Shown here piece by piece: positions 3,234 to 33,508 of a stretch of 64,000 nt of DNA. A program made the translations under genes and the position numbers. A model generated the notes under the pieces. The model saw only the letters and a program-made list of their open reading frames with translations, searched no databases and was not told the origin of the DNA. Within the stretch, counting starts at the first letter, position 1; every line of letters starts with the position of its first letter. Source of the stretch: Candidatus Eiseniibacteriota bacterium (GTDB lineage Bacteria > Eisenbacteria > RBG-16-71-46); the NCBI GenBank assembly GCA_041483195.1, contig JBGPFC010000017.1, forward strand, positions 20,310 through 84,309, written 5' to 3'.

Positions 3234-4193
3234 CTAGGGAATGAAGTTGGCCAGCATGGTCGGCCGCACGACGAACGGCAGGATCCAGGCCTGCGAGTCG
3301 TACGGGAGCGTGTCGTCGAACAGCGTGCCGTGCGAGAACGCGTTCACGCCGAGATGGTTCACGCCCCTCCAGAACGGCGAGCGCCAGACGCCGGTGTAGG
3401 TGTTGTCGCCGTTGTTGTGGAACATCGCGCGCAGCCCGCGCGACATCAGCACCACGACATCGTCGTTGCGCCCCGTCGTCACCGTGAGCCGAACGCTGTC
3501 GCCGGCGTCGAACGCCATGAACTGACGCAACCGGAAGAACGCGAGCGGATCGGTGACGGTGGTCTCGCGATCGGCCGTCGCGATCTTGAGGCTCAGGATC
3601 TTCGTGGTGGCGCTCCGCGACGTGACCTCGACGCCGGACGACGCCGCGATCCGCCAGCGGCGGTTGCGGTCGTCGTTGTCGCCGTCACCGCGCACGCGCT
3701 TCAGGAGCACGCGGCGCACCCAGTGGTCGGCGAGCGGCTTGCGCACGATCAGCAGGCGCATGCTGTCGCTCGCGGCGACTTCGGGCCGGGGGCCGGTCGC
3801 GATGTTGAACGTGCCCTTCAGGAGCTTGTGGAAGGTGACGATCGCGGTCGTCGGCCGGCCGGTCGTGTCGGTGTCCGCGAACGCGAACTCGAAGCTGCGG
3901 TCGACGCTCGTGATGTTCCGCCAGTACATGAGCGGTCGGATCGCCGCGAACCCGCCGGGGCCGGACGGGAGCGTGCCCTGGTCCGGGCTCTCGAACACGC
4001 CGTCTTCGATCAGCTCGGGCGCCGCGGCCATTGCGGATGAGGCCTCGGCCTGATCGTTGGCGGGAGTGCCTGACGAGCCGCCGCTCGAAGAGGCGCCCAC
4101 CGGCGAAAGCGGAGTGCTGGTTTTCTTGCCGCAGCCGCTCGACAACCCGGCCACGATGAAGAGCGCGATGGCGAAGCGGAACGTTGCCTTCAT
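3234..4193 (-). CDS. Hypothetical lipoprotein
   Basis: Start MKATFRFAIALFIVAGLSSG-C (lipobox) after GGAGG; Ser/Gly linker then a beta-rich domain. Confidence 0.75.
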   Translation of the reverse strand: MKATFRFAIALFIVAGLSSGCGKKTSTPLSPVGASSSGGSSGTPANDQAEASSAMAAAPELIEDGVFESPDQGTLPSGPGGFAAIRPLMYWRNITSVDRSFEFAFADTDTTGRPTTAIVTFHKLLKGTFNIATGPRPEVAASDSMRLLIVRKPLADHWVRRVLLKRVRGDGDNDDRNRRWRIAASSGVEVTSRSATTKILSLKIATADRETTVTDPLAFFRLRQFMAFDAGDSVRLTVTTGRNDDVVVLMSRGLRAMFHNNGDNTYTGVWRSPFWRGVNHLGVNAFSHGTLFDDTLPYDSQAWILPFVVRPTMLANFIP

Positions 4194-8351: not shown

Positions 8352-9731
8352 TCAGCCCGTGCGCGCCGGCTCGAGACGCGCGACGCACTCGATGTGCGGC
8401 GTGTGCGGGAAGAGATCGAACGGCGTGACCTCGTCGAGGGCGTAGCCCCCGGCCGCGAAATCCTTGAGATCGCGCGCGAGCGTCCCCGGATTGCACGACA
8501 CGTATACCACGCGCCGCGGATGCAGCTCGGTGACGCGCGCCACCACGCGCGGGTGAAGCCCGGAGCGTGGCGGATCCACCACCACCACCTGCGGCCGGGG
8601 CGCGTCCGGACGCTCGCCTCGCGCCCACTCGCGGAGCACGGCGCGCGCCTCGCCCTCGACGAAGCGCGCGTTCGCGATGCCGTTGCGCGCGGCGTTGCGT
8701 CGCGCGAGCGCGATCGCGTCCGGGACGCTCTCGACGCCGATCGCCTCGCGCGCGGCGCGCGCGAACAGCAGCGTGAGCGTTCCGGTGCCGCAGTACAGGT
8801 CGAGCAGGGTCTCGCCCTCCGTGATTCCCGCGGCCTCGAGCGCCGCGCGGTAGAGCGCCTCGGCCTGGCGGCTGTTGGTCTGCAGGAACGCGTTCGCCGA
8901 AACCTCGAAGTCGAGATCGAGCAGGCGCTCGCGGATCACGCCGTCGCCGATCAGCGCGCGCTCCCGCTCGCCGAACGCGACGTTGGCGCGCGAGTCGTTG
9001 ATGAGCAGCGTCACGGTCTTCACCGCCTTCGAGAGCGCGGCCACCGCGCGCGCCCATTCCTCGAGCCCCGCCATCTCGCCGGCCGCGGCCACCAGGTGCA
9101 CGGCGCACTCGTCGGTGAGCGGCAGATGGCGCACCGTGAGAAAGCGCACGTCGCCATGGTGCTGGCGCGGGTGGTACGCGCGCCACGCGCGATCGCGCGC
9201 GAAGCGCTGCGTGAGGCGCACGATCTCGACCGTGAGCGCGCTGGGCAGCAGGCAGTCCTCGAGCTCGAACACGCTGTCGAACGCGCCGCGATCGTGGAGC
9301 CCGAGCCGCGCGACCCCCCCGGCATCCGGCGCGAAGCTGAACTCCATCTTGTTGCGATAGCGAAACACCTCGGGCGCGCCGACGATGGCGCGCACCCGGG
9401 GCTCGGCGATGCCGCCGAGATGCACGAGCGTTTCGCGCACCTGCCGCTCCTTCGCCTCGAGCTGCCGCGCGTAATCCAGCTCCTGAAACCGGCAGCCGCC
9501 GCAGCGCGCGACGTGCGGGCAGCGCGGCTCGATGCGATCGGGAGCGGCGCGCTCGATCCGCTCGAGGCGAGCCTCCGCGAAGCTGCGCTTGACCCTCGTG
9601 ATCCGGGCCTCGATGCGGTCGCCAGGCAGACCGCGGTCCACGAAGACCACGCGGCCGTCCTGCCGGGCGATCGCCTTGCCACCGAGCGCGAGGTCCTGAA
9701 TGTCGAGGATTGACAGCTCGTTGACGCGCAT
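8352..9731 (-). CDS. rlmD: 23S rRNA (uracil-5)-methyltransferase with TRAM domain and 4Fe-4S motif
   Basis: CPHVARCGGC, FLQTN, LDLYCGTG, VDPPRSG, YVSCNP, DLFPHTPHIE. Confidence 0.95.
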   Translation of the reverse strand: MRVNELSILDIQDLALGGKAIARQDGRVVFVDRGLPGDRIEARITRVKRSFAEARLERIERAAPDRIEPRCPHVARCGGCRFQELDYARQLEAKERQVRETLVHLGGIAEPRVRAIVGAPEVFRYRNKMEFSFAPDAGGVARLGLHDRGAFDSVFELEDCLLPSALTVEIVRLTQRFARDRAWRAYHPRQHHGDVRFLTVRHLPLTDECAVHLVAAAGEMAGLEEWARAVAALSKAVKTVTLLINDSRANVAFGERERALIGDGVIRERLLDLDFEVSANAFLQTNSRQAEALYRAALEAAGITEGETLLDLYCGTGTLTLLFARAAREAIGVESVPDAIALARRNAARNGIANARFVEGEARAVLREWARGERPDAPRPQVVVVDPPRSGLHPRVVARVTELHPRRVVYVSCNPGTLARDLKDFAAGGYALDEVTPFDLFPHTPHIECVARLEPARTG

Positions 9732-9755
9732 GGCGGGACCGGGGAGGGCGGGTGG

Positions 9756-9784
9756 GCAACTTCCGGGAACCGGCAACCGTCCAA
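9756..9784 (+). promoter_or_regulatory. ECF-sigma-type promoter candidate
   Basis: GCAAC-N17-CGTCCAA upstream of the PDZ gene. Confidence 0.5.
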
Positions 9785-9855
9785 TGCTGTTGTAACTGGA
9801 GGCGCCGGGGGTCTCACGACTCCCGGCCGACCACGCTAGCACAGGGAGAACCTCA

Positions 9856-10875
9856 ATGCGCAGGCAGTCAGGATTCTGGGTGGCCGCAGTGAGCGCGCTC
9901 GCGCTCGGATCGCTCGTCGTCTCGGCGACCCGCTCATCCGCAGATGACGATTCACCGGCGTGGCTCGGGGTGTACTCGCAGACGCTCACCCCCGAGTTGC
10001 GCGAAGGCCTGGGATACAACGGCGACGGAGCGATCGTGACGAGCGTCGTGCCCGACAGCCCCGCCGATCGCGCGGGATTGAAGCAGGGCGACGTCATCGT
10101 CGGCTTCAACTCCACCACGATCGCTTCATCCAGCGGTCTCGCTCGCGCGGTGAGCGCGGAGGCGGCAGGAAAATCGGTATCGCTGCGCATCGTTCGCGAC
10201 AAGACGCGACGCACGCTCACCGCGACGCTCGCGGCGCGGCCCGAGGACGATGAAACGCCCGAATGGAACGAGGCGCCCGAGACGCCGGAGCCTCCCGACG
10301 CACCCGCCGCGCCCGCGGCGCCGCGCGCGCCGCGGATCCGGGAGTTCACTTTCAAGAACGGCGACGGGAATTTCTCGTTCGAGGGTCTCGGGAGAGGGCT
10401 CGGCATGCTGGGCATGGGCCGCGGCCGGCTGGGCGTCCGCGTCGAGAGCCTGAATCCCGATCTGGGCGGCTACTTCGGCGTGAAGGACGGCAAGGGCGTG
10501 CTCGTGATCGAGGTGCTCAAGGACACGCCCGCCGAACGCGCCGGGCTGAAGTCGGGCGACGTCATCACGCGCGTCGGTGACAAGGCGGTCTACGACGCCG
10601 ACGATCTCGTGAGCGCCCTGCGCGACGCAGACAAGCAGGCCACGCTCACCGTGATGCACAAGGGCGCATCGCGCACCGTCACGACCGAGCTGGCCGAGGC
10701 GCCTCACGTGATGCGGATCGATCGCTCGGGACCGCTCGGCATGCGCGACGGCGAGCTGCGGTGGCATTCCACGGACGGCGCGGGCGATCAGGGCGACGTA
10801 CGGCGGCAGCTCGATGATTTGCGCCGCGAGTTGCGCGAGCTGCGCGATCAGATCAAGGAGATGAACCACAACTGA
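9856..10875 (+). CDS. Exported double-PDZ protein with Pro-rich linker and C-terminal coiled coil (no protease domain)
   Basis: WLGV and RLGV starts; SPADRAGLKQGDVI and TPAERAGLKSGDVI; C-terminal LDDLRRELRELRDQIKEM. Confidence 0.88.
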   Translation: MRRQSGFWVAAVSALALGSLVVSATRSSADDDSPAWLGVYSQTLTPELREGLGYNGDGAIVTSVVPDSPADRAGLKQGDVIVGFNSTTIASSSGLARAVSAEAAGKSVSLRIVRDKTRRTLTATLAARPEDDETPEWNEAPETPEPPDAPAAPAAPRAPRIREFTFKNGDGNFSFEGLGRGLGMLGMGRGRLGVRVESLNPDLGGYFGVKDGKGVLVIEVLKDTPAERAGLKSGDVITRVGDKAVYDADDLVSALRDADKQATLTVMHKGASRTVTTELAEAPHVMRIDRSGPLGMRDGELRWHSTDGAGDQGDVRRQLDDLRRELRELRDQIKEMNHN

Positions 10876-23129: not shown

Positions 23130-24044
23130 TCAGGGCTGGGGCGTCGCGATGCTGGCCGCGAGCGTGCGCTGGACGAGACGCGTCACGTCCGCGAAACGAG
23201 TCGCGTTGGTCGGGGCCCCGAGCACGACCGCGATCATGTCGCGGCCTTCGGTGTGCACCCAGGTGGCCAGACAGTAGCCGGCCTCGCTGATGAAGCCGGT
23301 CTTGCCGCCCATGATCTCGTAACGGCCGTACAGCATGCGATTCGTGTTCGCGATCTGATGCGGCCGCGTCGCGCTGCGAAACGCGTAGGACCGCGTGGTG
23401 CTGATCGGCTGGATCACCGGGTTGTTCGCGGCCACGCGGAGCAGGCGTGCCACGTCGGCGGCGGTCGAGACGTTGCGTTCGTCGAGACCCGTGAACTCGA
23501 CGTAGCGGGTATGCGTGAGCCCGAGCTCGAGCGCCTTCTGATTCATGCGCGCCAGGTAATTCTCGGGCGAGAGCCCCGATTCTCGGGCGAGCACCCGGGT
23601 GGCCACGTTGTCGGAACACATGAGGCTCATGTGCAGCAGGTCGCCGAGCGCGACCCGCTCGCGATTGCGCAGCTGGGAGTGGCCCGCCCCGTAGAGCTCC
23701 GTGCGCGTGACCTCGGCCATCCGATCGAGCTCGGGGCTCTGCTCGAGGAACACGAGCGCGGTCATGAGCTTCGTGAGGCTCGCGATCGGCACCGAGAGGC
23801 CCGAGTTCTTTTCGTACAGAACTTCGTCGGTCGCGGGGTCGAGCACGATCGCGTTGCGGGCGTAGCATCCGCCGGGAGGTGCGCGCCGCGCCCGCCGGCC
23901 CAGGTGACGGCGGTGTCCCGCCTGGCCAACCGAAGCCGTGTAGGTCTGAGTCGTCGAGACGGAAGCGGCGGCCGTCATGGCCGGGCACGCGATCAGGGCC
24001 AACAACAGCGCGGCCCCGACGCGTCGTACGGGGTGAAGCGACAT
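23130..24044 (-). CDS. D-alanyl-D-alanine endo/carboxypeptidase (S11, PBP7-like)
   Basis: SxxK ASLTK, SDN, KTG (GGKTGF); signal peptide. Confidence 0.92.
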   Translation of the reverse strand: MSLHPVRRVGAALLLALIACPAMTAAASVSTTQTYTASVGQAGHRRHLGRRARRAPPGGCYARNAIVLDPATDEVLYEKNSGLSVPIASLTKLMTALVFLEQSPELDRMAEVTRTELYGAGHSQLRNRERVALGDLLHMSLMCSDNVATRVLARESGLSPENYLARMNQKALELGLTHTRYVEFTGLDERNVSTAADVARLLRVAANNPVIQPISTTRSYAFRSATRPHQIANTNRMLYGRYEIMGGKTGFISEAGYCLATWVHTEGRDMIAVVLGAPTNATRFADVTRLVQRTLAASIATPQP

Positions 24045-24125: not shown

Positions 24126-24187
24126 GCGGCGTCTGCCGCGAGCCGTCAACGAAAACCCTGCCCACCCGCGGCTGGGTGGGATGCCCC

Positions 24188-24574
24188 TCAGTGGATCAGG
24201 GTGGAACGCAGGTGCGGATAGACGGGCTGGCGGACCGCGCCGCGCTGCCAGTCCCCGAGGCGGCAGAAGCCATCGACGCTCAGGTCCTCGACTTCTTCGG
24301 AGAACGCGTCGAGCCTTCCCTCGTGCAACGCCACCACCATGGTCTCGCCGCGAGCACGATTGAGGATCCTCACGATCTCGGGATTGAGGCAGGGCCCATA
24401 CACCAGGTCGACGAGCACGAGGCCCGGCAGCGAGCGCAGCAGGCGCAATGCCTCGCGAGGTCTTGCAGCGATCCGCACGCTGGTCCCGCGACCGCGGAGC
24501 GCGTTCATGTGTGCGGCATGCAGGCTGGGTGCTGCGCTGAGCAGCAGAACTTCACATGATCGAGGGGGGTTCAT
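24188..24574 (-). CDS. Atypical single-domain receiver (REC)-like protein
   Basis: EVLLLS..., EALRLL, PGLVLVDL, MVVAL, VDGF pattern; ATGA overlap with the upstream gene. Confidence 0.6.
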   Translation of the reverse strand: MNPPRSCEVLLLSAAPSLHAAHMNALRGRGTSVRIAARPREALRLLRSLPGLVLVDLVYGPCLNPEIVRILNRARGETMVVALHEGRLDAFSEEVEDLSVDGFCRLGDWQRGAVRQPVYPHLRSTLIH

Positions 24575-25119
24575 GAGAGAGATCCTCGTGGGCTGGGATC
24601 CAGGCCGAGGTCGACCCGGATCTTGTCCAGGCTGTCGTACAGGGATGGAAGGAATCGCCCCGCCGAAACCTCCGTGTCGAGGTCGAGGTTGCTTCCCACC
24701 GCGAGCCGACCCGCCCATGCCGAAGCCTCGTCGGCATCCCCAGCTGGGGCGAGCCGTCTCAGAAAACGGAGCAGCAGGCGCTGTGAATCCAGCGACAGCC
24801 GCTCCACGAAATCGATCAGCAACGTGCCGCCGTCCGTCGCACGCAGCAGGCTCCGGCCGGGCTCGGGGTCCGCGTTCGACAGCCAGCCCCGGAGCCCGGC
24901 CTGCACCGAAGCTTCGTCATGATCCGCGCGTACCGCGACGAACGCTCCGTAGCGCACCGGGCTCTCGCGATGGAATGCGATCGCGACCTCGGCCCGCTCG
25001 GAAGGCGTTCCCCGCAGCAACAGCAGGTGAATGAGGCTATGCCGGTGCATGCGGATGAGCTCGGCGGCCCGCGGCGCCGCCCTTCCGGGGAACAGATTCT
25101 GTTCGAGTGCGCGAGGCAT
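24571..25119 (-). CDS. Degenerate stand-alone sigma54-activator AAA+ domain
   Basis: LLLRGTPSERAEVAIAFH, AFVAV, DGGTLLIDFVERLSLDSQRLLLRFL, RLAVGSNLDL, GRFLPSLYDSL follow the bEBP motif order with catalytic residues lost. Confidence 0.75.
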   Translation of the reverse strand: MPRALEQNLFPGRAAPRAAELIRMHRHSLIHLLLLRGTPSERAEVAIAFHRESPVRYGAFVAVRADHDEASVQAGLRGWLSNADPEPGRSLLRATDGGTLLIDFVERLSLDSQRLLLRFLRRLAPAGDADEASAWAGRLAVGSNLDLDTEVSAGRFLPSLYDSLDKIRVDLGLDPSPRGSLS

Positions 25120-25125
25120 CGCCCG

Positions 25126-25437
25126 TCAGATCTTCGGTCGCCGCGCAGTCGCGGTGCTGACCGGGGTCGTGGCCCGGATCACGCGCGCCGCGGACTGACG
25201 GGGAGCGAAGCGGGCGCGCAGGTAGTCGCGGATCAGCGCGGCCTGGTATTCGAGCAGGGCGGTCGGCGCGAGCGTCGGGGTTGCCGCACCCTCCGAAGCG
25301 CCGCTCATGAGGGCGCTCGTGCCTCCGGTCGGGACGACGCCCGATCCCTGAGCGCTGGCGGGTCCGGCGAGAAGGCTGAGAGCGCAGGAAAGAATCGCGG
25401 CCAGGGCGATCGCAGCCAGCAAACGGGCGGCACGCAT
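25126..25437 (-). CDS. Small secreted hypothetical protein (103 aa)
   Basis: AGGAGG RBS; signal peptide ending ASA|Q. Confidence 0.7.
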   Translation of the reverse strand: MRAARLLAAIALAAILSCALSLLAGPASAQGSGVVPTGGTSALMSGASEGAATPTLAPTALLEYQAALIRDYLRARFAPRQSAARVIRATTPVSTATARRPKI

Positions 25438-25491
25438 GAAACGCCTCCTTCGAAACAGTGGTGAAACGCGGGGGGACCGCGACGCCACTTG

Positions 25492-25507
25492 GCGAGGACC
25501 GTGCCAG
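25492..25507 (-). promoter_or_regulatory. sigma54 -24/-12 promoter
   Basis: CTGGCACGGTCCTCGC, 55 nt upstream of the 25437 start. Confidence 0.7.
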
Positions 25508-25607
25508 CTGCCGTCCATCGATGATCCGTGCTCGCATCGTGCTTCCCGACAGAGACTTAGTGCGCTTCCGATCGGAAGAAGTAGCACGTCGTCGCATGGA
25601 GTCAAAT

Positions 25608-25713
25608 TCGCCGAAACCAGCGAAATGACGACATCGCCATTTATATAATCTGTTGTCTGTATTTTAGTTCAAGTTAATTTCAGCGATTTCGGCGAGTCCG
25701 CCGTTTATGGCGA
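25608..25713. promoter_or_regulatory. Candidate enhancer: repeated 16-bp boxes ending GCGA around an AT-rich IHF-like tract
   Basis: TCGC-N8-GCGA (25608), TCAG-N8-GCGA (25680), CCGC-N8-GCGA (25698); AT-rich tract 25639-25680 with CAACAGATTA on the minus strand. Confidence 0.45.
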
Positions 25714-28700
25714 GTCGAATCGAGGGTGTACTTGCGGATGCGGTAACGAAGAGACTGCTCCGTGAGCCCCAGATGGCGGGCGGCGAGGCTCTGGTTGCCC
25801 GATGCGAGTTCGAGCGCTTCCGCGATCGCGCGGCGCTCGAGCTTCTCGACCAGCTCCTTGAGGGTGCCGCCGCGCGGGATCTGGTCCGGGCGTTCTTCGA
25901 GGTCGCGCGGCGGAGGCGTGGGATGCAGCGCATCGCCGGGCGTCATGGCCAGCACGCGCTCGATGTAGTTCTGCAGCTCGCGCACGTTCCCCGGCCAATC
26001 GCTCTGCATCAGAGCCGGGACGAATTCCCGGGTGAGCCGCGGCACGGGACGTTCCTGCTGGCCGGCGTAGATCCGAACGAAATGCGCCGCGAGCGCCGGG
26101 ATGTCCGCCTTGCGCTCGCGGAGCGGAGGCACCTCGATCGGGATGACGTTCAGGCGGTAGAAGAGATCCTCGCGAAACGTGCCCCGCTCCACCGACTGGC
26201 GCAGGTCGCGATTCGACGCCGCGATGATGCGCACGTCCACCGGGATGGGTTTTCCTCCACCCACCGGGGTGATCTCGCGATTGGCGATCGCCGAGAGCAG
26301 GGCGACCTGCTGCTTGAGCGGCATCTCGCCGACTTCGTCCAGGAAGAGCGTGCCCCCGTCCGCCTGGACGAATCGCCCGTCGCGCCCGCCCACCTCGGTC
26401 GCGATGCGCGACAGGATTCCGAACAACTCGCTCTCGAGCAGCGTCTCGGGAATCGCCCCGCAGTTGACCGCGACGAACGGCTTGAGCCGCCGCTTGCCGC
26501 TGTGGTGCAGGACGCGGGCGATGAGCTCCTTGCCCGTGCCGTTCTCGCCGGTGAGCAGCACCGTGGCATTGACCCGCGCGGCGCGATCGACCACGGCGAG
26601 CACGCGTTGCATGGCGGAGCTCGTCCCGATCAGATTTTCCGCACGGAAGCGCGAGCTCACCTCGCGGCGCAACGAGAGGTTTTCTCCGACCAGCTGCTCG
26701 TTCACGCGCAGCACTTCCTGGTGGCCGCGGCTGTTCTCGATGGCGACGGCCATGAGCTGGGCGAAGCCTTCGAGCAGGGCGCGGTCCGCGTCGCTGAAGA
26801 CGTCGGGGCGGCGCGAGTCGTCGAGATAGACCGCCCCCACCACGCGTCCGCCGAGGTAGAGGGGGACGCAGAGGATGGACCGGAGACGCATGTCCATCAC
26901 GCTCTCCGAGCGGGCCTGCGGATCGGTCGGCGCGTCGGCGATCAGCAGGCTGCCCCCGCTCTCGGCCACGCGCTGCACGACCCTCCGGCTGTACCCGACC
27001 GCCGCGTTTCGGGTCTTCGCGTCCACCGCGCCGAAATCGGCCACCGGGGTGAGCTGCCCGGTCTCGGGGTCGGCCAGCAACAGCACGCCACGCTCGGCGT
27101 CGAGCTGTTCGACGGCGAGCCTCATCGCGCGCCGCGTGAGCTCCCCGAAGTCGGACATCGAATTGAGCAGCCGGCTCACCGCCTCGATCAGGTCGCGCTC
27201 GCGTCCCGCCGACGGGACGCCCGCGGCGCCCCGGCGGAGCCATTCCACGGTGAGCGCGAGGGTGGCGGCTCGACCGCGCGAATCGCCGAGCCGCTCGAAC
27301 GCGCCGGCCGCCACATCGAGCCAGCGCCCGACCGCGATGGTCGCCTCGCGGTCGGCCGCGAGCGCGAGCCGCGAGAAATCGAGCGCGGCGTGCGCGCGAT
27401 CGGCCGGCGCGGGAAGGGCACCCAGCCGATCGAGCACGGCCCTGGCGCCCTCTTCGTTCTCCGAATTCCGCGCTCGCGCGAGCGCGAGCTCGGACCGCAG
27501 CTGGTCCACGGTCGCTGCGGCATATGGTGCGTCGTGTCCGGCGAGCCAGGATCGCGACTCCTCGACCCGCGCCTTCGCGAGGTCGATCGCGCCGGCGCGG
27601 AGCGCGGCACGGCCCGCGAGGGCCAGCAGGACCGTGCGTCCCACCGATCCGGAGGGCCGCGGGCTCGCGAGCGCGCCGTCCCAGAGTTCGCCAGCTTCCT
27701 TCCAGCGGCCGGCGGCGATCAGCGATCGGCCCAGCTCGATACGGCACCAATCGATCTCGTCGGGCCTCGACAGCTTCATGCCCAGCGCGAGCGCGCGCTG
27801 CGCGATGCGGGCCGCTCGCGAATAGCGGCCCGCGATCCGATGCGCCTGGGCCAGCGAGCGCATGGCGAACGGCGTCTGCTGCGGCAGGTAGACCCGGCAC
27901 ATGCGCACCGCGGCCCGCGCCTGCGCGAGCGCGCCGGCTCGATCGCCCGTGAGCCCGTCGGCCTGCGCGAGATTCGCGATCGCGATCGCGGCGCCGTGCG
28001 GGCGTCCGTCCTCCAGCGCGAGCCGCGCCGCTTCCGCGACGGAGCGGCGCGCGTCCGGCCAGCGGCCGGCCTCGATCAGGATGACCGACCAGTTGAGCAG
28101 CAGCTCCTCGAGCGGCAGCCGCAACCCGTGCGCGCGCGCGCGCGCGATGGCATCGAGATAGAGACGCTCGGCCTCGGCGGCGCCCTGACGGGATTGCGCG
28201 ATGACCGCGCACAATCCCGTGGCCCGCAGCTCTCCCGGGAGATCGCCCGCGCGCGCGAACGCCTCAACGGCCCGAGCGGCCGTCGCCGCAGCTTCCTCGG
28301 CGAGGGTATCTTCCGCACGCCCGCTGATCATCGCGCCGGCGAGCGTCTGCGCCGCGACCCCGATCGCCAGCTCGTCGGTCGCGGACTCGCCGAGGGCCAG
28401 CGCATTCCGCGCCAGCTCGAGCGCGCCGGGCCGGTCGCCATCGAACAAGAGCCGCGCGGCCTCGTTGCTGAGAATGCGCGAGCGCGAAGCTTCGGGGAGG
28501 GACGCCGCGAGCGCCGTGGCGGCGACCCGCGCGGCGTCCGCGAGCTTCCCCGCGCGCAGGCATGCGGTCGACAGCTGCACCCAGCGCGCGGGGCGGTGAT
28601 CGGGCGCGGCATCCAGCGACAGGGCGCGCTCGATGTGCGGAATCGCCGAACCGTAGCGGCCGCGCGCCGCCCACTCGCGCGCGGCCCGCTCGTGCCACGT

Positions 28701-30791
28701 CGCGGCCGCGGCGTGTCCCTGCGATTCCGCGAGGGCCGCGGCGTCGGCGGCCAGCCGCGCGTCGGGCCGCGCCGCAAACGCCGCCGCCGCCGCTTCGAGC
28801 GCCGCGGCCGCATCGCCCGCGGCGCGCAGGTGAACGAAGCGCTCCTCATGCGAGAGCGGGCCGCTCTCGACCACGGCGCGGTGGAGCGCGCGCCGCGCAT
28901 CGGCATCGAGCCGCTCGAGCAACGCGGGCCCGAGCGCGGGCGGCGTGAGCGCGACGTCGCCGTTCTCCTCGCGGCGCGCGAGGCCGGCGGTCACCAGCGT
29001 GGCGGCGGCGTCATCGCCGGCCGCCGGCGCGATCGCGCGCATGCGCTCTGCGGAGGCCGGATGGCCGAACGCCGCGATCGCATGCGCCGCCTCCCGCGCC
29101 GGAGTGGGCAGCGCCAGGAGGCGTTCGAGCACCGCGGCCTCGAAGCCTAAGGCCTTGGGCAGGGCATCGAGCCGCTCCGCAACCAGCAGGAGCCCGGCAT
29201 CGCTGTCGCGCAGCGCGCCCCGCGCGGCGGCGGTGCGCAGCCGCTCGATGGCGAGCCCGGGGTGGCCGCCACTCTCGCGACGGAGGAACGCGAGCAGCGC
29301 ATCCGGCGCCGGCTCGCCGAGCCGCGCGGCGACGAGGCGGGCCAGACCCTCGTCGTCGAGCGGGCCCAGCGTCATCGTCTCCGCGTAGCCCGCCTCGAGC
29401 AGCATGCGCACGTCGTCGGGAGGCACGGGGGATTCCGCGCGGCGCGCCCACACCCACAACATGCGCGCGGCATCCGGATGCACGATCAGGCGCCTGGCGA
29501 ACGCGCGGGAGAGCGAGTCGAGGTGCCGCGTGTCGTCGAGCAGCATCAGCGGCGCGCCGCGCCGTGCCGCCGCGGCGCGACTCCAGCGGGCCGCGGCGTC
29601 GACCAGCGCGGAGAGCTCGTGTTCATCCAGCCCGACCGGATCCCCCGCGAGCGCCGCGCGGGTGCGTGGCGCCAGCTCGATCGCGAGGCTCGGATCGGCG
29701 CCGGCCTCTGCGGCGAGGCGGCGTGCGATGCGCAGCGCGACGTCGCCCCGGCGCTCGGCTCCGGCGCACGACAGCGAAACGACGCTGACCCCGGAGAGCG
29801 CGGCGCGCCCCGCGAGCTCCGAGAGCAGCGCGGACTTGCCGACGCCCGCCTCGCCGGTGAGCCAGACGAGGTGGGAGCGCGACGTGAGCGATCCGCGGCG
29901 CGCCTCGATCCTCGCGAATTCCCGCTCGCGCCCCGCGACCACCAACGCTTCCATGCGCGCTTCGAGCGGCCGCCGGGCCGCGGGGTGGATTCTCTCGAGC
30001 TCGCGCCGCACCTCGCGCGCATCGACCGGTCGTTCGGCGGGCGAGGGCGCGAGCAGCCGCAGCACCAGGCGTGCGAGCGCGGGCGGAGCACCGGATTCCT
30101 CGAGCGGACGGGTGGACGGCGGCCCCGCCTGCTGACGCCTCAGGATCGCCGATGGCCGATCGCCTTCGAAGGGCGGGGAGCCCGCGATCAAAGCATAGAG
30201 CGTCGCGCCCAGACCGTAGAGGTCCGACGCCGCGCCGGGCGCCTCGCCGCGGATCACCTCGGGCGCGGCGAATCCCGGCGTCCCGCGATGTCCGGCGCCG
30301 CGGGCGTCCCGCAGCCCCGCGAGCCCGAAATCGAGCAGGCGCACGGCGGCCGGAAGCGCGCCGGCGGCCGCCGCGTGCACCACCAGCAGGTTCGAAGGCT
30401 TGAGATCCCCGTGCACGACGCCCGCCGCGTGCAGCGCCTCGAGACCGGACGCGACCTCGGCCGCGACGAAGCAGAGCGCGGCCCAGTCGCCGCGGGTGAG
30501 CGCCCGATCGGGCGGCACGCCCGGCACGAACTCCATCGTGTAGTAGGGCGAGCCGTCGAAGTCGAATCCGAGCTCGTGCACAGCGATGATCGTCGGATGC
30601 CGCACGCGGGTGAGCGCCTCGAACTCGTGGCGCATGAGCTCGGGCGTCGCGAGCGGGGTCCGCCGTCCCAGCCGCTTGAGCGCGCACTCCGCGCCGGTCG
30701 TCTGATCGAGCGCGAGGAACACCTCGCCCATGCCACCGCGTCCCAGCGGCTTGAGGAGGAGGTAACGGCCGGCGACGCGCTCCCGCATCAT
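25680..30791 (-). CDS. Ser/Thr kinase - STAND-like P-loop - TPR - GAF - sigma54 AAA+ - Fis HTH regulator (1703 aa)
   Basis: GRGGMG, ALK, HGDLKPSN, DFG, APE; GEAGVGKS; GAF SILCVPL; GENGTGKE, FLDEVG, FREDLFYRL, WPGNVREL; GNQSLAARHLGL. ATGA overlap with the DUF885 stop. Confidence 0.93.
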   Translation of the reverse strand: MMRERVAGRYLLLKPLGRGGMGEVFLALDQTTGAECALKRLGRRTPLATPELMRHEFEALTRVRHPTIIAVHELGFDFDGSPYYTMEFVPGVPPDRALTRGDWAALCFVAAEVASGLEALHAAGVVHGDLKPSNLLVVHAAAAGALPAAVRLLDFGLAGLRDARGAGHRGTPGFAAPEVIRGEAPGAASDLYGLGATLYALIAGSPPFEGDRPSAILRRQQAGPPSTRPLEESGAPPALARLVLRLLAPSPAERPVDAREVRRELERIHPAARRPLEARMEALVVAGREREFARIEARRGSLTSRSHLVWLTGEAGVGKSALLSELAGRAALSGVSVVSLSCAGAERRGDVALRIARRLAAEAGADPSLAIELAPRTRAALAGDPVGLDEHELSALVDAAARWSRAAAARRGAPLMLLDDTRHLDSLSRAFARRLIVHPDAARMLWVWARRAESPVPPDDVRMLLEAGYAETMTLGPLDDEGLARLVAARLGEPAPDALLAFLRRESGGHPGLAIERLRTAAARGALRDSDAGLLLVAERLDALPKALGFEAAVLERLLALPTPAREAAHAIAAFGHPASAERMRAIAPAAGDDAAATLVTAGLARREENGDVALTPPALGPALLERLDADARRALHRAVVESGPLSHEERFVHLRAAGDAAAALEAAAAAFAARPDARLAADAAALAESQGHAAAATWHERAAREWAARGRYGSAIPHIERALSLDAAPDHRPARWVQLSTACLRAGKLADAARVAATALAASLPEASRSRILSNEAARLLFDGDRPGALELARNALALGESATDELAIGVAAQTLAGAMISGRAEDTLAEEAAATAARAVEAFARAGDLPGELRATGLCAVIAQSRQGAAEAERLYLDAIARARAHGLRLPLEELLLNWSVILIEAGRWPDARRSVAEAARLALEDGRPHGAAIAIANLAQADGLTGDRAGALAQARAAVRMCRVYLPQQTPFAMRSLAQAHRIAGRYSRAARIAQRALALGMKLSRPDEIDWCRIELGRSLIAAGRWKEAGELWDGALASPRPSGSVGRTVLLALAGRAALRAGAIDLAKARVEESRSWLAGHDAPYAAATVDQLRSELALARARNSENEEGARAVLDRLGALPAPADRAHAALDFSRLALAADREATIAVGRWLDVAAGAFERLGDSRGRAATLALTVEWLRRGAAGVPSAGRERDLIEAVSRLLNSMSDFGELTRRAMRLAVEQLDAERGVLLLADPETGQLTPVADFGAVDAKTRNAAVGYSRRVVQRVAESGGSLLIADAPTDPQARSESVMDMRLRSILCVPLYLGGRVVGAVYLDDSRRPDVFSDADRALLEGFAQLMAVAIENSRGHQEVLRVNEQLVGENLSLRREVSSRFRAENLIGTSSAMQRVLAVVDRAARVNATVLLTGENGTGKELIARVLHHSGKRRLKPFVAVNCGAIPETLLESELFGILSRIATEVGGRDGRFVQADGGTLFLDEVGEMPLKQQVALLSAIANREITPVGGGKPIPVDVRIIAASNRDLRQSVERGTFREDLFYRLNVIPIEVPPLRERKADIPALAAHFVRIYAGQQERPVPRLTREFVPALMQSDWPGNVRELQNYIERVLAMTPGDALHPTPPPRDLEERPDQIPRGGTLKELVEKLERRAIAEALELASGNQSLAARHLGLTEQSLRYRIRKYTLDSTRHKRRTRRNR

Positions 30792-32548
30792 TTCGCTCCC
30801 GCTCGCGATCCGTTCCTGCGGACCAGCTGCCGGAGCACGCCCTCGCGGGCCAGCGGAAGCGGCACGCCTCCCTGTCGCAGCAGCGCGTCGTGAAACGCGC
30901 GCAGATCGAACCGATCCCCCAGCGCGCGGCGCGCCTCCTCGCGCAGCGCGAGGATCCGCCACTTGCCGAGCGTGTACACCAGGTAGGTCGGATCGAGCGC
31001 GCCGCGCCGCGCCTCGCGGGCCGCGTTCACCGGGGCGAGATAGCAGCGTTCTTCGAACAGCCGCTCCGCCTGTTCCAGGGTCATGCCCTGCGTGTGCAGC
31101 GAGATGCCGACGATCAGTCGCCCGATGCGGCTCAGGGCGAGCGCGAGCTGGGCCAGCTCGATGCGGGGATCGCCGCGGCCGAAGCCCTCCTCCACCATCA
31201 TCTGCTCGCAGTAGTGGGCCCAGCCTTCGGAGTTGCTCGCGCAGCGCAATGCCTGCCGCACGCGCGAGGGCACCCGCTGCAGTTCGAGGAATTGGGCGTA
31301 GTGACCGGGCAGCGCCTCGTGCACGGTCACGAGCGCGGCCGCGCTGCGATTGAAGAACGCGAGGTGGTCGCGCCGCTGCCGCTCGGTCCATTGCGGTTCC
31401 GGTGGGGTGACGTTGAACCAGGCGCGGGTCGCGCGTCGCTCCCACACGCCCGGGGCATCCATCGACGCGAATGAGAGGCTCCGCTGAAACGGCGGGGTCT
31501 CGCGCACCACCAGGTCTTCGCGCGCCGGCAGGGTGAGCACACGGTGGGCGCCGAGGAACGCGCGAATGCTGTCGAGCCCGGCCGCGACGAACGGCACCAA
31601 CCCCGAGTCGGACGGCGCGTCGACCTCGAGCGATTCGAGCGCGGCGGCCACGCCCAGGCCGGGCGCGATGCGATCGGCGACCCGCTCCATCTGCGCGCGC
31701 GTCGTGTCGAGCGCCGCCATGCCCTGCGCGAGCAGGGACTCGACCGGCGCCGTCTCCATCTCGTCGGCCGCGAGTTTGCGCTGATAGAGGTCGCGGCCCA
31801 GCGCGAAGCCGCCGGTCGCGTGGGGGAGGACGTCCTCGCGCAGCTGCTGCACGAATCGTTCGACCGCGAGCACCGCCGCCGAATCCGCCTCGGCGAGATC
31901 GGCCTGCACGCGCGGTTCGCGGCAGCCGCCGCTCAGCGCGGGGATCCCGCGGCGGTAGTAGTCGAGCACCCCCTGGAATTGGGCGATCGCGACCTCGACG
32001 TAGAGCCGCGGCGGATCGCGAAGGTTCACGCGCGCCGCGCGAAGCACCTCCGGCACCAGGCGCAGGCGACGGGTCGCGAGCAACGCGCGTTCGCACGGCG
32101 GCGCGATGTCGCGCTCGAGCAGGGACTGGATCGAGCCCGCCACCAGGTCGAGGTACGCGTTCGGATTGCGCTCGAACGACCGGACTTCCGCGAGCTCGAT
32201 CCGCTCGCGTTCGATGCGGGCGGAGAGCAGGTCGTACTCCTGAGCGCGCTCGAACGAGAGCGCATCGCGCGGGATCGCGTCCAGCGAGGCGCGCATGCCG
32301 GCCAGCCAGTCGAGATCGGACGCGACCGAGGCCGCGGTGATCGGCTCCAGCCGGCCGTCCCAGGCGTGGATCCCGAGCCGGGTCGCGAGCTGCGGACGGC
32401 GTGCGAGCCAGCCGTCGAGAAACGCGTCCGCGACCCGCAGCAGGCGCGCGTCAGAAGACTGGGCCACGGCGGCGCCCGCGAGCCAGAGCCCGAGAAACGC
32501 GGCGATCAGCAGACGGCGCAGAACGACTTTCATCATGTCCTGGCTCAC
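30788..32548 (-). CDS. DUF885 family exported protein (metallopeptidase-like)
   Basis: ATRLGIH, HEALPGHYAQ, SEGWAHYCE, YTLGK, FHDALL. Confidence 0.9.
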   Translation of the reverse strand: MSQDMMKVVLRRLLIAAFLGLWLAGAAVAQSSDARLLRVADAFLDGWLARRPQLATRLGIHAWDGRLEPITAASVASDLDWLAGMRASLDAIPRDALSFERAQEYDLLSARIERERIELAEVRSFERNPNAYLDLVAGSIQSLLERDIAPPCERALLATRRLRLVPEVLRAARVNLRDPPRLYVEVAIAQFQGVLDYYRRGIPALSGGCREPRVQADLAEADSAAVLAVERFVQQLREDVLPHATGGFALGRDLYQRKLAADEMETAPVESLLAQGMAALDTTRAQMERVADRIAPGLGVAAALESLEVDAPSDSGLVPFVAAGLDSIRAFLGAHRVLTLPAREDLVVRETPPFQRSLSFASMDAPGVWERRATRAWFNVTPPEPQWTERQRRDHLAFFNRSAAALVTVHEALPGHYAQFLELQRVPSRVRQALRCASNSEGWAHYCEQMMVEEGFGRGDPRIELAQLALALSRIGRLIVGISLHTQGMTLEQAERLFEERCYLAPVNAAREARRGALDPTYLVYTLGKWRILALREEARRALGDRFDLRAFHDALLRQGGVPLPLAREGVLRQLVRRNGSRAGAK

Positions 32549-32576: not shown

Positions 32577-33305
32577 TCAGGGACGCGGGACGACGTCGTG
32601 CACCAGCACCATCGGGTCCCCGATCTTGAGCGGCGAGGAGGAGAGGTATGCCTGTGCGTACTTCGCGCCGATCTGCCAGCCCCAGTAGCTGGCGAACGAC
32701 GCGAACACCTCGCGCACCGGCGGCAGGTGCGCGGGTCGCGGCTTCTCGGGGTTGTAGAACTGACTCTGGTGGCAGTCGAGCGCCGCCATCCACTCGTCGA
32801 AGACCTCGCTGATGTCGACCAGAAAGGTGGGCTGTGTTCCGGGCGGAAGGAAGTAGTAGAAGATGGCCTTCGCCTGATGCACCTCGCCCGGAATCGGGGC
32901 CTTGCGCAGGTGCGCCAGATTGTAGGCGTTCGAGACGATCTGACCGGTCTTGTAGTGATCGTTGTGGCCGAGCCCGCGCCCGATCGGCAGGTTGTAGTAT
33001 GGCGCGAGCACGATCTGCGCGCGGTGCTTGCGGATCATCGCCGCGGCCTTGCAGCGGTTCTCGAACGTGTCCTCCACCCGGCAATCGCCGAGGTCGAGGT
33101 TCTCGCGAACGTCGAGCCCGAGAATGGTCCCCGCCTTCCGGCTTTCCTCGGCGCGGATCTCGGGCGTTCCCCAGCCCATGTCGCCGGTCGTCATGTCGAC
33201 GATTCCGGTGCTGTGACCGAGATTCTTCATCTTGCGAAGCAGGCCGCCGGCGCCGATCTCGGCATCGTCGGGGTGGGGACCGAACGCGAGAAAATCGACC
33301 GCCAT
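32577..33305 (-). CDS. bshB1: PIG-L family deacetylase, BshB1-like
   Basis: GPHPDDAE, TTGD, HNDH, CHQSQF. Confidence 0.75.
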   Translation of the reverse strand: MAVDFLAFGPHPDDAEIGAGGLLRKMKNLGHSTGIVDMTTGDMGWGTPEIRAEESRKAGTILGLDVRENLDLGDCRVEDTFENRCKAAAMIRKHRAQIVLAPYYNLPIGRGLGHNDHYKTGQIVSNAYNLAHLRKAPIPGEVHQAKAIFYYFLPPGTQPTFLVDISEVFDEWMAALDCHQSQFYNPEKPRPAHLPPVREVFASFASYWGWQIGAKYAQAYLSSSPLKIGDPMVLVHDVVPRP

Positions 33306-33508
33306 GGACGGGCTCTCCAGAAGTCGCACGAGGGGTGGGAACGATGCGCGCGGCGCAAGCGCGCGGGTCATCATAGCCAGCGTTCCCGGGCGAGACAACC
33401 GTACGGGGCCGGGCGCGCGGCGGGCGGCGGACCTGCGGGACGCGTGCGCGCCTTTGGAGTATGCTGCGCCCGGATGACCGCACCGCGCGCGCTCCCTCCG
33501 GAGGCCTC

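Follow-up and report, generated by a model that had tools for sequence, protein, structure and literature searches.

Why would a bacterium keep a dead AAA+ domain and a dead receiver domain in an operon of their own, next to the gene for a giant regulator? The question is raised by a locus in a 64,000-nucleotide stretch of Candidatus Eiseniibacteriota DNA (GenBank assembly GCA_041483195.1, contig JBGPFC010000017.1, positions 20,310 to 84,309; "the window" below). There, the gene for a kinase-fused bacterial enhancer-binding protein (bEBP) is followed by three small genes, which encode an exported mini-protein (gene 1), a stand-alone pseudo-AAA+ domain (gene 2) and a pseudo-receiver (gene 3). 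Our analysis indicates that this three-gene operon, directly downstream of the giant regulator, is most likely a conserved regulatory module of Candidatus Eisenbacteria. The best explanation of the module as a whole, which we hold tentatively, is that the neighbouring regulator activates the operon and that the dead domains modulate the regulator non-enzymatically.

The window has a G+C content of 71.7%, and the giant gene and the three small genes all lie on its minus strand. In the direction of transcription, the giant gene (25680-30791) comes first, then a spacer of 242 nt, and then three closely spaced genes. An earlier note, made from the letters of the window, had described three tightly linked genes here, and they are indeed present on the minus strand where it put them. 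The start of gene 2 lies 6 nt past the stop of gene 1, and the start of gene 3 overlaps the stop of gene 2 as ATGA. The two dead-domain genes are translationally coupled. Codon-position G+C backs all three frames, with G+C at third codon positions (GC3) of 0.81, 0.77 and 0.78 for genes 1 to 3. These values (0.77-0.81) are below those of the neighbours (0.84-0.98). The other called genes span 0.81-0.98, a range that is skewed upwards because the gene caller demanded GC3 > 0.78.

Gene 2 (25119->24571, minus strand) encodes a stand-alone protein of 182 residues that corresponds to the alpha/beta subdomain of a bEBP. It matches the Pfam family Sigma54_activat (PF00158) at 35.5 bits, with a cut-off of 20.2, over profile positions 20-167 of 168. 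There is no match to AAA_lid_14 or to the DNA-binding helix-turn-helix (HTH) family HTH_8, and the protein stops after the alpha/beta subdomain. When it is aligned with true bEBPs, GTPSER stands in place of the Walker A motif GxxGxGK, with Arg for Lys, and DF stands in place of the Walker B DE. GAFTGA is missing, and both Arg fingers are replaced. The Pfam match and the lost catalytic motifs together bear out the pseudo-bEBP AAA+ domain that the earlier note had recognized in this gene.

The same losses run through a family. A word-based search returned three short relatives of gene 2, at 91, 65 and 52% identity, and an exhaustive search of 1.84 billion representatives with the family profile gave 90 matches at E <= 1e-30. 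Of the top 150 profile matches, 141 are short proteins (89-263 aa) that stand alone, so that, at the 50% identity level, the family numbers at least 141 representatives. Arg occupies the position of the Walker A Lys in 123 of the 124 members that have a residue there, and Glu is found at the second Walker B position in just 13/141. At the Arg-finger positions, FR has become F[L/S] and YR has become D[A/C]. The family also has a motif of its own, DxLDKxRV, as well as two conserved Ser-containing motifs, HRxS and HxxSP. An AlphaFold model of gene 2, built on a 122-sequence alignment, reaches a predicted local distance difference test (pLDDT) score of 87.4 and matches the AAA+ cores of FleQ, FlrC, NtrC1, PspF and VpsR with template modelling (TM) scores of 0.6-0.7 and E ~1e-9; the family profile finds the PDB bEBP chains of NifA, CapR, ZraR, NtrC and FleQ at ~1e-22. 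We read the gene 2 product as a dead AAA+ alpha/beta subdomain that has lost every ATPase and sigma-54-contact motif and yet is conserved. The remaining nine of the 150 profile matches are bEBPs of the ordinary or tandem kind, and we rejected the idea that long proteins among the matches carry the dead domain in fused form. Long proteins that the profile search also returned (P0116, P0146, P0140, P0153, P0156, P0165 and P0175) include some with tandem sigma-54 interaction domains, two or three each. One long match has two FHA matches and three sigma-54 interaction domains, and another, of 800 aa, has Clp_N repeats and a Sigma54_activat-like domain.

Gene 3 (24574->24188, minus strand) encodes 128 residues. 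Its product has no Pfam match, to PF00072 or to any other family, and no NCBIfam match at E <= 1. We found 14 homologues at 48-94% identity, most of them of about 128 aa, with the conserved motifs LVLVDLVYGP, VVALHEG and VDGFCR. Asp56 is invariant in 15/15 sequences, and His84 is nearly invariant. The best model (pLDDT 75.3; 46-56 for the other four) has five strands and four helices, with the last helix unmodelled, and places Asp56 at the end of strand 52-56. Its top Foldseek matches are all receivers, including NtrC1 and LuxO, with TM scores of ~0.6 and E ~1e-5. The pocket residues were assigned manually, with the ends of the modelled strands as the guide and no structural alignment. On this mapping the phospho-acceptor Asp is retained, the acidic pair is replaced by Ser13-Ala14, the Thr/Ser by Leu83-His84, and the Lys by Arg105-Leu106. 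The gene 3 product can thus be modelled as a conserved receiver fold without a metal-binding pocket. This agrees with the ATGA-coupled atypical receiver of the earlier note: the overlap is there, the fold is receiver-like, and the pocket residues are lost. In the ESM Atlas, the nearest clusters to gene 3 are unnamed small proteins, one of them with Response_reg on 20% of its members, a weak lead. Complex prediction for the pseudo-AAA+ domain (6-row alignment) together with the pseudo-receiver (15-row alignment) gave scores of 0.01 and 0.00, where the mark is 0.32, an outcome that speaks neither for nor against binding.

Gene 1 (25437->25126, minus strand) encodes a protein of 103 residues with a predicted signal peptide, cleaved at ASA|QGS. 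Judged by eye, its N-terminus follows the signal-peptide pattern of a basic stretch, a hydrophobic stretch and AxA, in keeping with the secreted 103-aa protein that the earlier note had called from this reading frame. Positional orthologues in two other loci, L001 and L002 (described below), are 33% and 24% identical to it, respectively, and have the AxA-Q-x-S site in common with it. The mature part is of ~74 aa and has no conserved short C-terminal peptide. No family was found for gene 1 in Pfam, NCBIfam or the ESM Atlas, where the best scores, 0.85, were to unnamed clusters. The product appears to be a fast-evolving exported protein.

Does the arrangement recur elsewhere? A scan of species-representative genomes with the gene 3 alignment yielded three loci. 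L001 is a 4.2-kb contig of Candidatus Eisenbacteria that carries the end of the giant gene, followed by genes for the exported protein, the pseudo-AAA+ domain and the pseudo-receiver. L002 is a contig of 70% G+C, labelled Candidatus Udaeobacter, on which eight genes stand in the same order as in the window: PIG-L, DUF885, the giant regulator, the exported protein, the pseudo-AAA+ domain, the pseudo-receiver, a DD-carboxypeptidase and TauE. In that order, the identities to the window are 71, 57, 52, 24, 41, 48, 68 and 55%. The arrangement thus recurs beside the same giant regulator in L001 and L002, which is what the synteny search in metagenome-assembled genomes proposed in the earlier note was to look for. 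The ATGA overlap between the pseudo-AAA+ and pseudo-receiver genes is present in 3/3 loci. The third hit, L003 (Planctomycetaceae), was discarded as spurious; it consists of a 24-residue match only, and no other gene of the locus was matched. Further co-occurrence of the pseudo-receiver with the giant regulator is suggested indirectly: longest contigs of 22888 and 123515 bp are common to two pseudo-receiver matches and giant orthologues.

Several features of these two contigs deserve mention in their own right. The label of L002 is at odds with its collinearity with the Eisenbacteria-like window, for which a mis-binned contig or gene transfer could account. Its PIG-L and DUF885 genes lie at L002 1212-3812, and its small genes (9140-10387) have a GC3 of 0.74-0.82, likewise under that of the neighbouring genes. 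In L001, ~90 codons of the AAA+ domain of the giant gene are repeated with a change of frame (within 1-2123), and the pseudo-receiver frame breaks near 3764; both are probably assembly or sequencing errors. A gap of 229 nt (L001 2658-2886) separates the exported gene from the pseudo-AAA+ gene, where the window has just 6 nt. Read in one of its frames, this gap contains a heptad-like stretch that ends in a stop, with no obvious ATG.

The regulator next door is the other half of the question. Its domain order in Pfam is Ser/Thr kinase, AAA_16/STAND NTPase, TPR, GAF, Sigma54_activat, AAA_lid_14 and HTH_8 (Fis-type), and we take it to be a cytoplasmic kinase–STAND–TPR–GAF–AAA+–HTH protein of 1703 aa. 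The start of the gene (25680..30791, minus strand) was set by codon-position G+C. A mechanical open reading frame (ORF), 25680-32096, is listed as 2138 aa, and its first 435 codons (30792-32096, minus strand) are Arg-rich and overlap a DUF885 gene in another frame. Because their GC3 is only 0.49, against 0.88 for the remainder, these codons are judged to be non-coding and the true gene to have 1703 codons. The kinase motifs, read directly, are intact (Gly loop, beta-3 Lys, HGD catalytic loop, DFG and APE). The AAA+ domain is a full PF00158 match, at 206.6 bits, accompanied by AAA_lid_14 and HTH_8; by translation and alignment, the bEBP module retains Walker A, Walker B, both Arg fingers and the HTH. 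Among the 120 best matches to the giant protein are ~115 orthologues of ~1690 aa, and those that are named are mostly Candidatus Eisenbacteria. A few orthologues stand under other phylum labels (Limnocylindria, Terriglobales, Acidoferrales), where again mis-binned contigs or gene transfer could be the explanation.

One motif of the giant regulator departs from the bEBP pattern. At the GAFTGA position, in the L1 loop at about residues 1443-1452 of 1703, the alignment shows ILSRIATEV. The orthologues in L001 and L002 have QVATGV and RVATGV, respectively. Indeed, 115 of the 120 listed relatives carry a loop of the form [V/T/I]A[T/S]xV, typically ILPNVATGVRGR; of the other five, four are non-orthologues with GAFTGA-like loops, and one was not resolvable. 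The L1 loop of the giant regulators is thus substituted, with Ala at the position of Phe, and conserved, near full length and with no deletion. GAFTGA-less bEBP relatives have been described before: in a preprint (bioRxiv 10.1101/2023.06.06.543975), Rhodobacter capsulatus NtrC, Caulobacter NtrC, NtrX and VpsR are presented as having loop deletions and acting at sigma-70 promoters. In this lineage, VATGV may stand as a functional alternative form of the sigma-54 contact, or else another bEBP may serve the promoter described below.

The spacer between the giant gene and gene 1 contains the elements expected if the operon were under bEBP control. A sigma-54-type -24/-12 element, CTGGCACGGTCCTCGC, lies at 25507->25492 on the minus strand and is the sole match to the promoter pattern in the window; it was present where the earlier note had placed its sigma54 promoter. 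The pattern CTGGCA-N6-TNGC is invariant in 3/3 loci, with GG and GC at sigma-54 spacing (consensus TGGCAC-N5-TTGC); at its second position, the -12 element has C or G instead of the consensus T. If transcription is assumed to start 24 nt past the GG of the -24 element, the inferred 5' untranslated region is 36-44 nt long in the three loci. A GGAGG ribosome-binding site (25444..25448, minus strand) lies 6 nt ahead of the ATG of gene 1 and is invariant in the three-locus alignment. Upstream of the promoter lies an enhancer-like inverted repeat, TTCGCT-GGTTTC-GGCGAA (25607..25624), with one mismatch to TTCGCC-N6-GGCGAA. Both L001 and L002 have a single exact copy of TTCGCC-N6-GGCGAA, in the orthologous location. 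Counted from the inferred start site, the repeat has its centre at -135 in the window, -130 in L001 and -135 in L002. In the alignment of the three spacers, the inverted repeat and the -24/-12 element are conserved islands, together with the ribosome-binding site, and the rest has diverged. Control by a DNA-binding bEBP fits, because the enhancer-like repeat stands at a fixed distance from a conserved -24/-12 element.

Other elements of the spacer carry less weight. The earlier note had described GCGA-ending 16-bp boxes; these sequences are present, but they are really the arms of the inverted repeat. A weaker second enhancer-like site, with two mismatches (25697..25714, centre ~-225), lies within the giant gene, at its 3' end. 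An equivalent two-mismatch copy is found in L001, 89-90 bp upstream of the main site in both, and there is none in L002; the site counts for little because it overlaps conserved coding sequence. The perfect 14-bp palindrome CTTCCGATCGGAAG (25565..25578, centre -91) is present as the earlier note had reported. Its sequence is unconserved in the spacers of the other two loci: in L001 another inverted repeat (9+9) occupies a similar position, and L002 has nothing comparable. In sum, the anatomy proposed earlier, with its promoter, three linked genes, dead bEBP-type AAA+ domain and atypical receiver, holds. The circuit that the earlier note drew from it, self-contained and with an activator that would induce a secreted factor plus feedback inhibitors, is supported in part.

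In the mechanism that we favour, the Fis-type HTH of the neighbouring giant regulator would bind the inverted repeat, and its ATPase ring would open the sigma-54 promoter when its kinase, STAND/TPR and GAF modules allow it. Produced at a constant ratio, the two dead domains would then modulate the AAA+ assembly of the giant regulator non-enzymatically. They would most likely do so by using what was once the subunit interface to cap or poison the ring, with feedback as the result, and the exported protein would be the external output. We reason that a stand-alone alpha/beta subdomain with no Arg fingers or lid, and with new charged residues (DxLDKxRV) at the former interface, has the look of a ring-capping or ring-poisoning protein. 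A bolder version of this mechanism can be drawn, which we regard as unlikely. Here, pairs of pseudo-bEBP and pseudo-receiver would be lineage-wide, auto-induced, ring-capping inhibitors of a giant, kinase-gated regulator that drives the sigma-54 promoter via VATGV instead of a GAFTGA supposed to be indispensable, and the co-induced exported protein may close an extracellular loop through the TPR/STAND sensor.

A number of observations weigh against activation by the neighbour and feedback by the dead domains. The giant regulator is without the canonical GAFTGA sigma-54 contact motif, and the known GAFTGA-less relatives are reported to act at sigma-70 promoters; yet those have deletions, and here there is a substitution. 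The window contains no rpoN, and the synteny support consists of two other loci, which are relatives of one lineage. Nor are the cis patterns rare by themselves. The promoter pattern has one match in the window against 0.60 expected, and 49/100 shuffles reach one; the enhancer pattern, with up to two mismatches, has 10 matches against 8.71 expected. We place both above chance because they are conserved at the orthologous position in 3/3 loci amid a diverged spacer. The IHF-like AT-rich tract of the earlier note is real (25639..25679, directly after the stop of the giant gene), but we rejected it as an IHF site; rather than separating enhancer from promoter, it is found on the upstream side of the enhancer, and in the spacer alignment it is not conserved in L002. 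Finally, the pseudo-AAA+ profile scores 76 bits on the giant protein of the window, at most 83 on any giant and 62-93 on ordinary bEBPs. Because it favours the AAA+ domain of the giants no more than those of unrelated bEBPs, there is no sign that the pseudo-AAA+ domain arose from its presumed target, and an origin by duplication of the giant's AAA+ domain is unsupported.

How do other explanations of the locus compare? One, in which an old NtrC-like regulator gene is decaying and the small ORFs are what is left of it, would account for the loss of the catalytic motifs and for the somewhat low GC3 of the small genes (0.77-0.81 versus 0.81-0.98). Decay is hard to square with frames, lengths and an ATGA overlap that are preserved across loci 40-56% identical, with at least 141 diverged representatives that have the same substitutions plus new conserved motifs, or with confident fold predictions for both domains. 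The small genes appear to be under selection. The earlier note had named small ORFs that lack conserved orthologues as the finding that would undo its proposal; instead, conserved orthologues exist for both the pseudo-AAA+ domain and the pseudo-receiver, and because of the conservation data we consider the remnant explanation effectively refuted. If the domains are functional, they might still be downstream signalling parts rather than brakes, such as substrates or adaptors of the giant's Ser/Thr kinase, with Ser/Thr phosphorylation replacing that of Asp and the signal passing to another target. The intact kinase motifs fit such a role, as do the conserved Ser motifs of the pseudo-AAA+ family (HRxS and the Ser of HxxSP), and invariant Asp56 and nearly invariant His84 suggest that a receiver surface is preserved. 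However, the phosphorylation and the other target are purely hypothetical, and the layout suits feedback equally; we find this account doubtful.

The promoter itself may belong to a different, canonical bEBP, or not depend on sigma-54 at all, with the giant regulator acting elsewhere, possibly at sigma-70 promoters. The replacement of GAFTGA by VATGV speaks for this, as does the reported association of known GAFTGA-less relatives with sigma-70. Moreover, because the collinear block extends into housekeeping neighbours, adjacency alone could be inherited. Against this stand the -24/-12 element and the enhancer as the only conserved islands of a diverged spacer, the position of the enhancer at a fixed distance right after the regulator gene in 3/3 loci, and an L1 loop that has undergone substitution, not deletion, and is strongly conserved in its own right. 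We judge either form of this account to be rather unlikely. Fast evolution is typical of signalling peptides, and the exported part of gene 1 evolves fast (24-33% identity). It could be imagined as a pro-peptide whose signal the giant regulator senses through its TPR or STAND part, in an autoinducing cassette in which the dead domains are the brakes. The logic would be like that of RRNPP systems, where a TPR receptor binds a processed and re-imported peptide encoded beside it. A signal-peptide gene does lie immediately downstream of a cytoplasmic TPR regulator, with its promoter adjoining the regulator. However, no peptide importer or processing protease is seen in the window, the ~74-aa mature part has no short C-terminal peptide that is conserved, and the RRNPP resemblance is one of layout only. 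Such a cassette seems improbable.

Beyond the module, the ends of the operon and the flanking genes can be placed as follows. Directly past the last stop codon, direct reading finds a 7-bp GC hairpin followed by TTTT (24162..24180, minus strand), possibly a weak terminator. A terminator scan missed this hairpin, and its folding is no better than that of shuffles (z = -0.29); the end of the operon is uncertain because the hairpin is unconvincing as a terminator. A sigma-70-like site, TTGACG-18-TAAAGT (24149->24120, minus strand), lies ahead of the next gene downstream, which encodes a Peptidase_S11 DD-carboxypeptidase (23130-24044, minus strand) and is the same neighbour as in L002. Upstream of the giant gene is the DUF885 gene (30788-32548, minus strand), whose stop is overlapped by the ATG of the giant gene, and ahead of it is a PIG-L deacetylase gene (32577-33374, minus strand).

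Parts of the proposed circuit have counterparts in known systems. In Rhodobacter sphaeroides, the bEBP FleQ is modulated by a second AAA+ polypeptide, FleT. HrpR and HrpS of Pseudomonas syringae are paired bEBP subunits (PMC3105312). In HrpR/HrpS with HrpV and in FleQ/FleT, as is proposed here, an AAA+ ring is built or modulated by a second AAA+ protein or a small partner encoded nearby, and the paired subunits are without a sensor domain. HrpR, HrpS and FleT, however, are active ATPases with GAFTGA, whereas gene 2 is without the Walker A Lys, the Walker B Glu, the Arg fingers, GAFTGA, the lid and the HTH. Another likeness is to FleN, NifL and PspA, separate or small proteins that hold back the AAA+ domains of FleQ, NifA and PspF, respectively, some of them under the control of that same bEBP and thus giving feedback. 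FleN is described as a FleQ anti-activator that binds the AAA+ domain of the bEBP in PMC8528422. The FleN–FleQ and NifL–NifA complexes are among the structural matches of the gene 2 model. The small genes have no Pfam or NCBIfam match to FleN, NifL or PspA, and these proteins, unlike the dead domains here, whose binding is only presumed, are not AAA+ or receiver homologues.

The two dead domains have their origin in parts of the kind found in NtrC and NtrC1, which have a receiver, an AAA+ domain and an HTH in one chain. Here, in contrast, they are separate polypeptides in reversed order, AAA+ then receiver, with no DNA-binding domain or lid and with the catalytic and phosphorylation-pocket residues lost. 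With R. capsulatus NtrC, Caulobacter NtrC, NtrX and VpsR, the giant regulator shares the absence of a canonical GAFTGA; those relatives have L1 deletions and work at sigma-70 promoters, in the preprint cited above, whereas the giant regulator has a near-full-length xVATGV beside a conserved -24/-12 element. The C-terminal third of the giant protein resembles GAF–AAA+–HTH proteins of the NifA type and scores best against NifA, at 336 bits, which is below the equivalog cut-off of 528.85. Its N-terminal two thirds (Pkinase, AAA_16, TPR) resemble kinase–STAND–TPR regulators like PknK and MalT. In the literature, covered mainly at the level of abstracts, we found no description of a fusion of these two halves, of a VATGV loop or of sigma-54 regulation in Eisenbacteria, and none of the layout as a whole, for which the earlier note likewise knew no described system. 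In none of the systems compared does a sigma-54-type promoter next to a kinase-fused bEBP precede two separate but coupled genes, one for a dead AAA+ domain and one for a dead receiver.

Even on a cautious reading, the pseudo-AAA+ family, with its representatives numbering at least 141, and its receiver partner are uncharacterised, and they are unnamed or mis-annotated: among the matches listed, database names for the small-gene families are "DNA-binding NtrC family response regulator", "CheY-like chemotaxis protein" and hypothetical protein. If activation by the neighbour and modulation by the dead domains are borne out, this would be the first bEBP with a modulator that is a catalytically dead version of the bEBP's own kind of ATPase domain, teamed with a dead receiver, and thus a pseudoenzyme solution to feedback in sigma-54 control. 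It would also mean that a conserved VATGV can replace GAFTGA, which bears on how the loop engages region I of sigma-54. Candidatus Eisenbacteria, an uncultured phylum-level lineage, would gain a regulatory module that can be tested heterologously, consisting of a pair of cis elements and four proteins.

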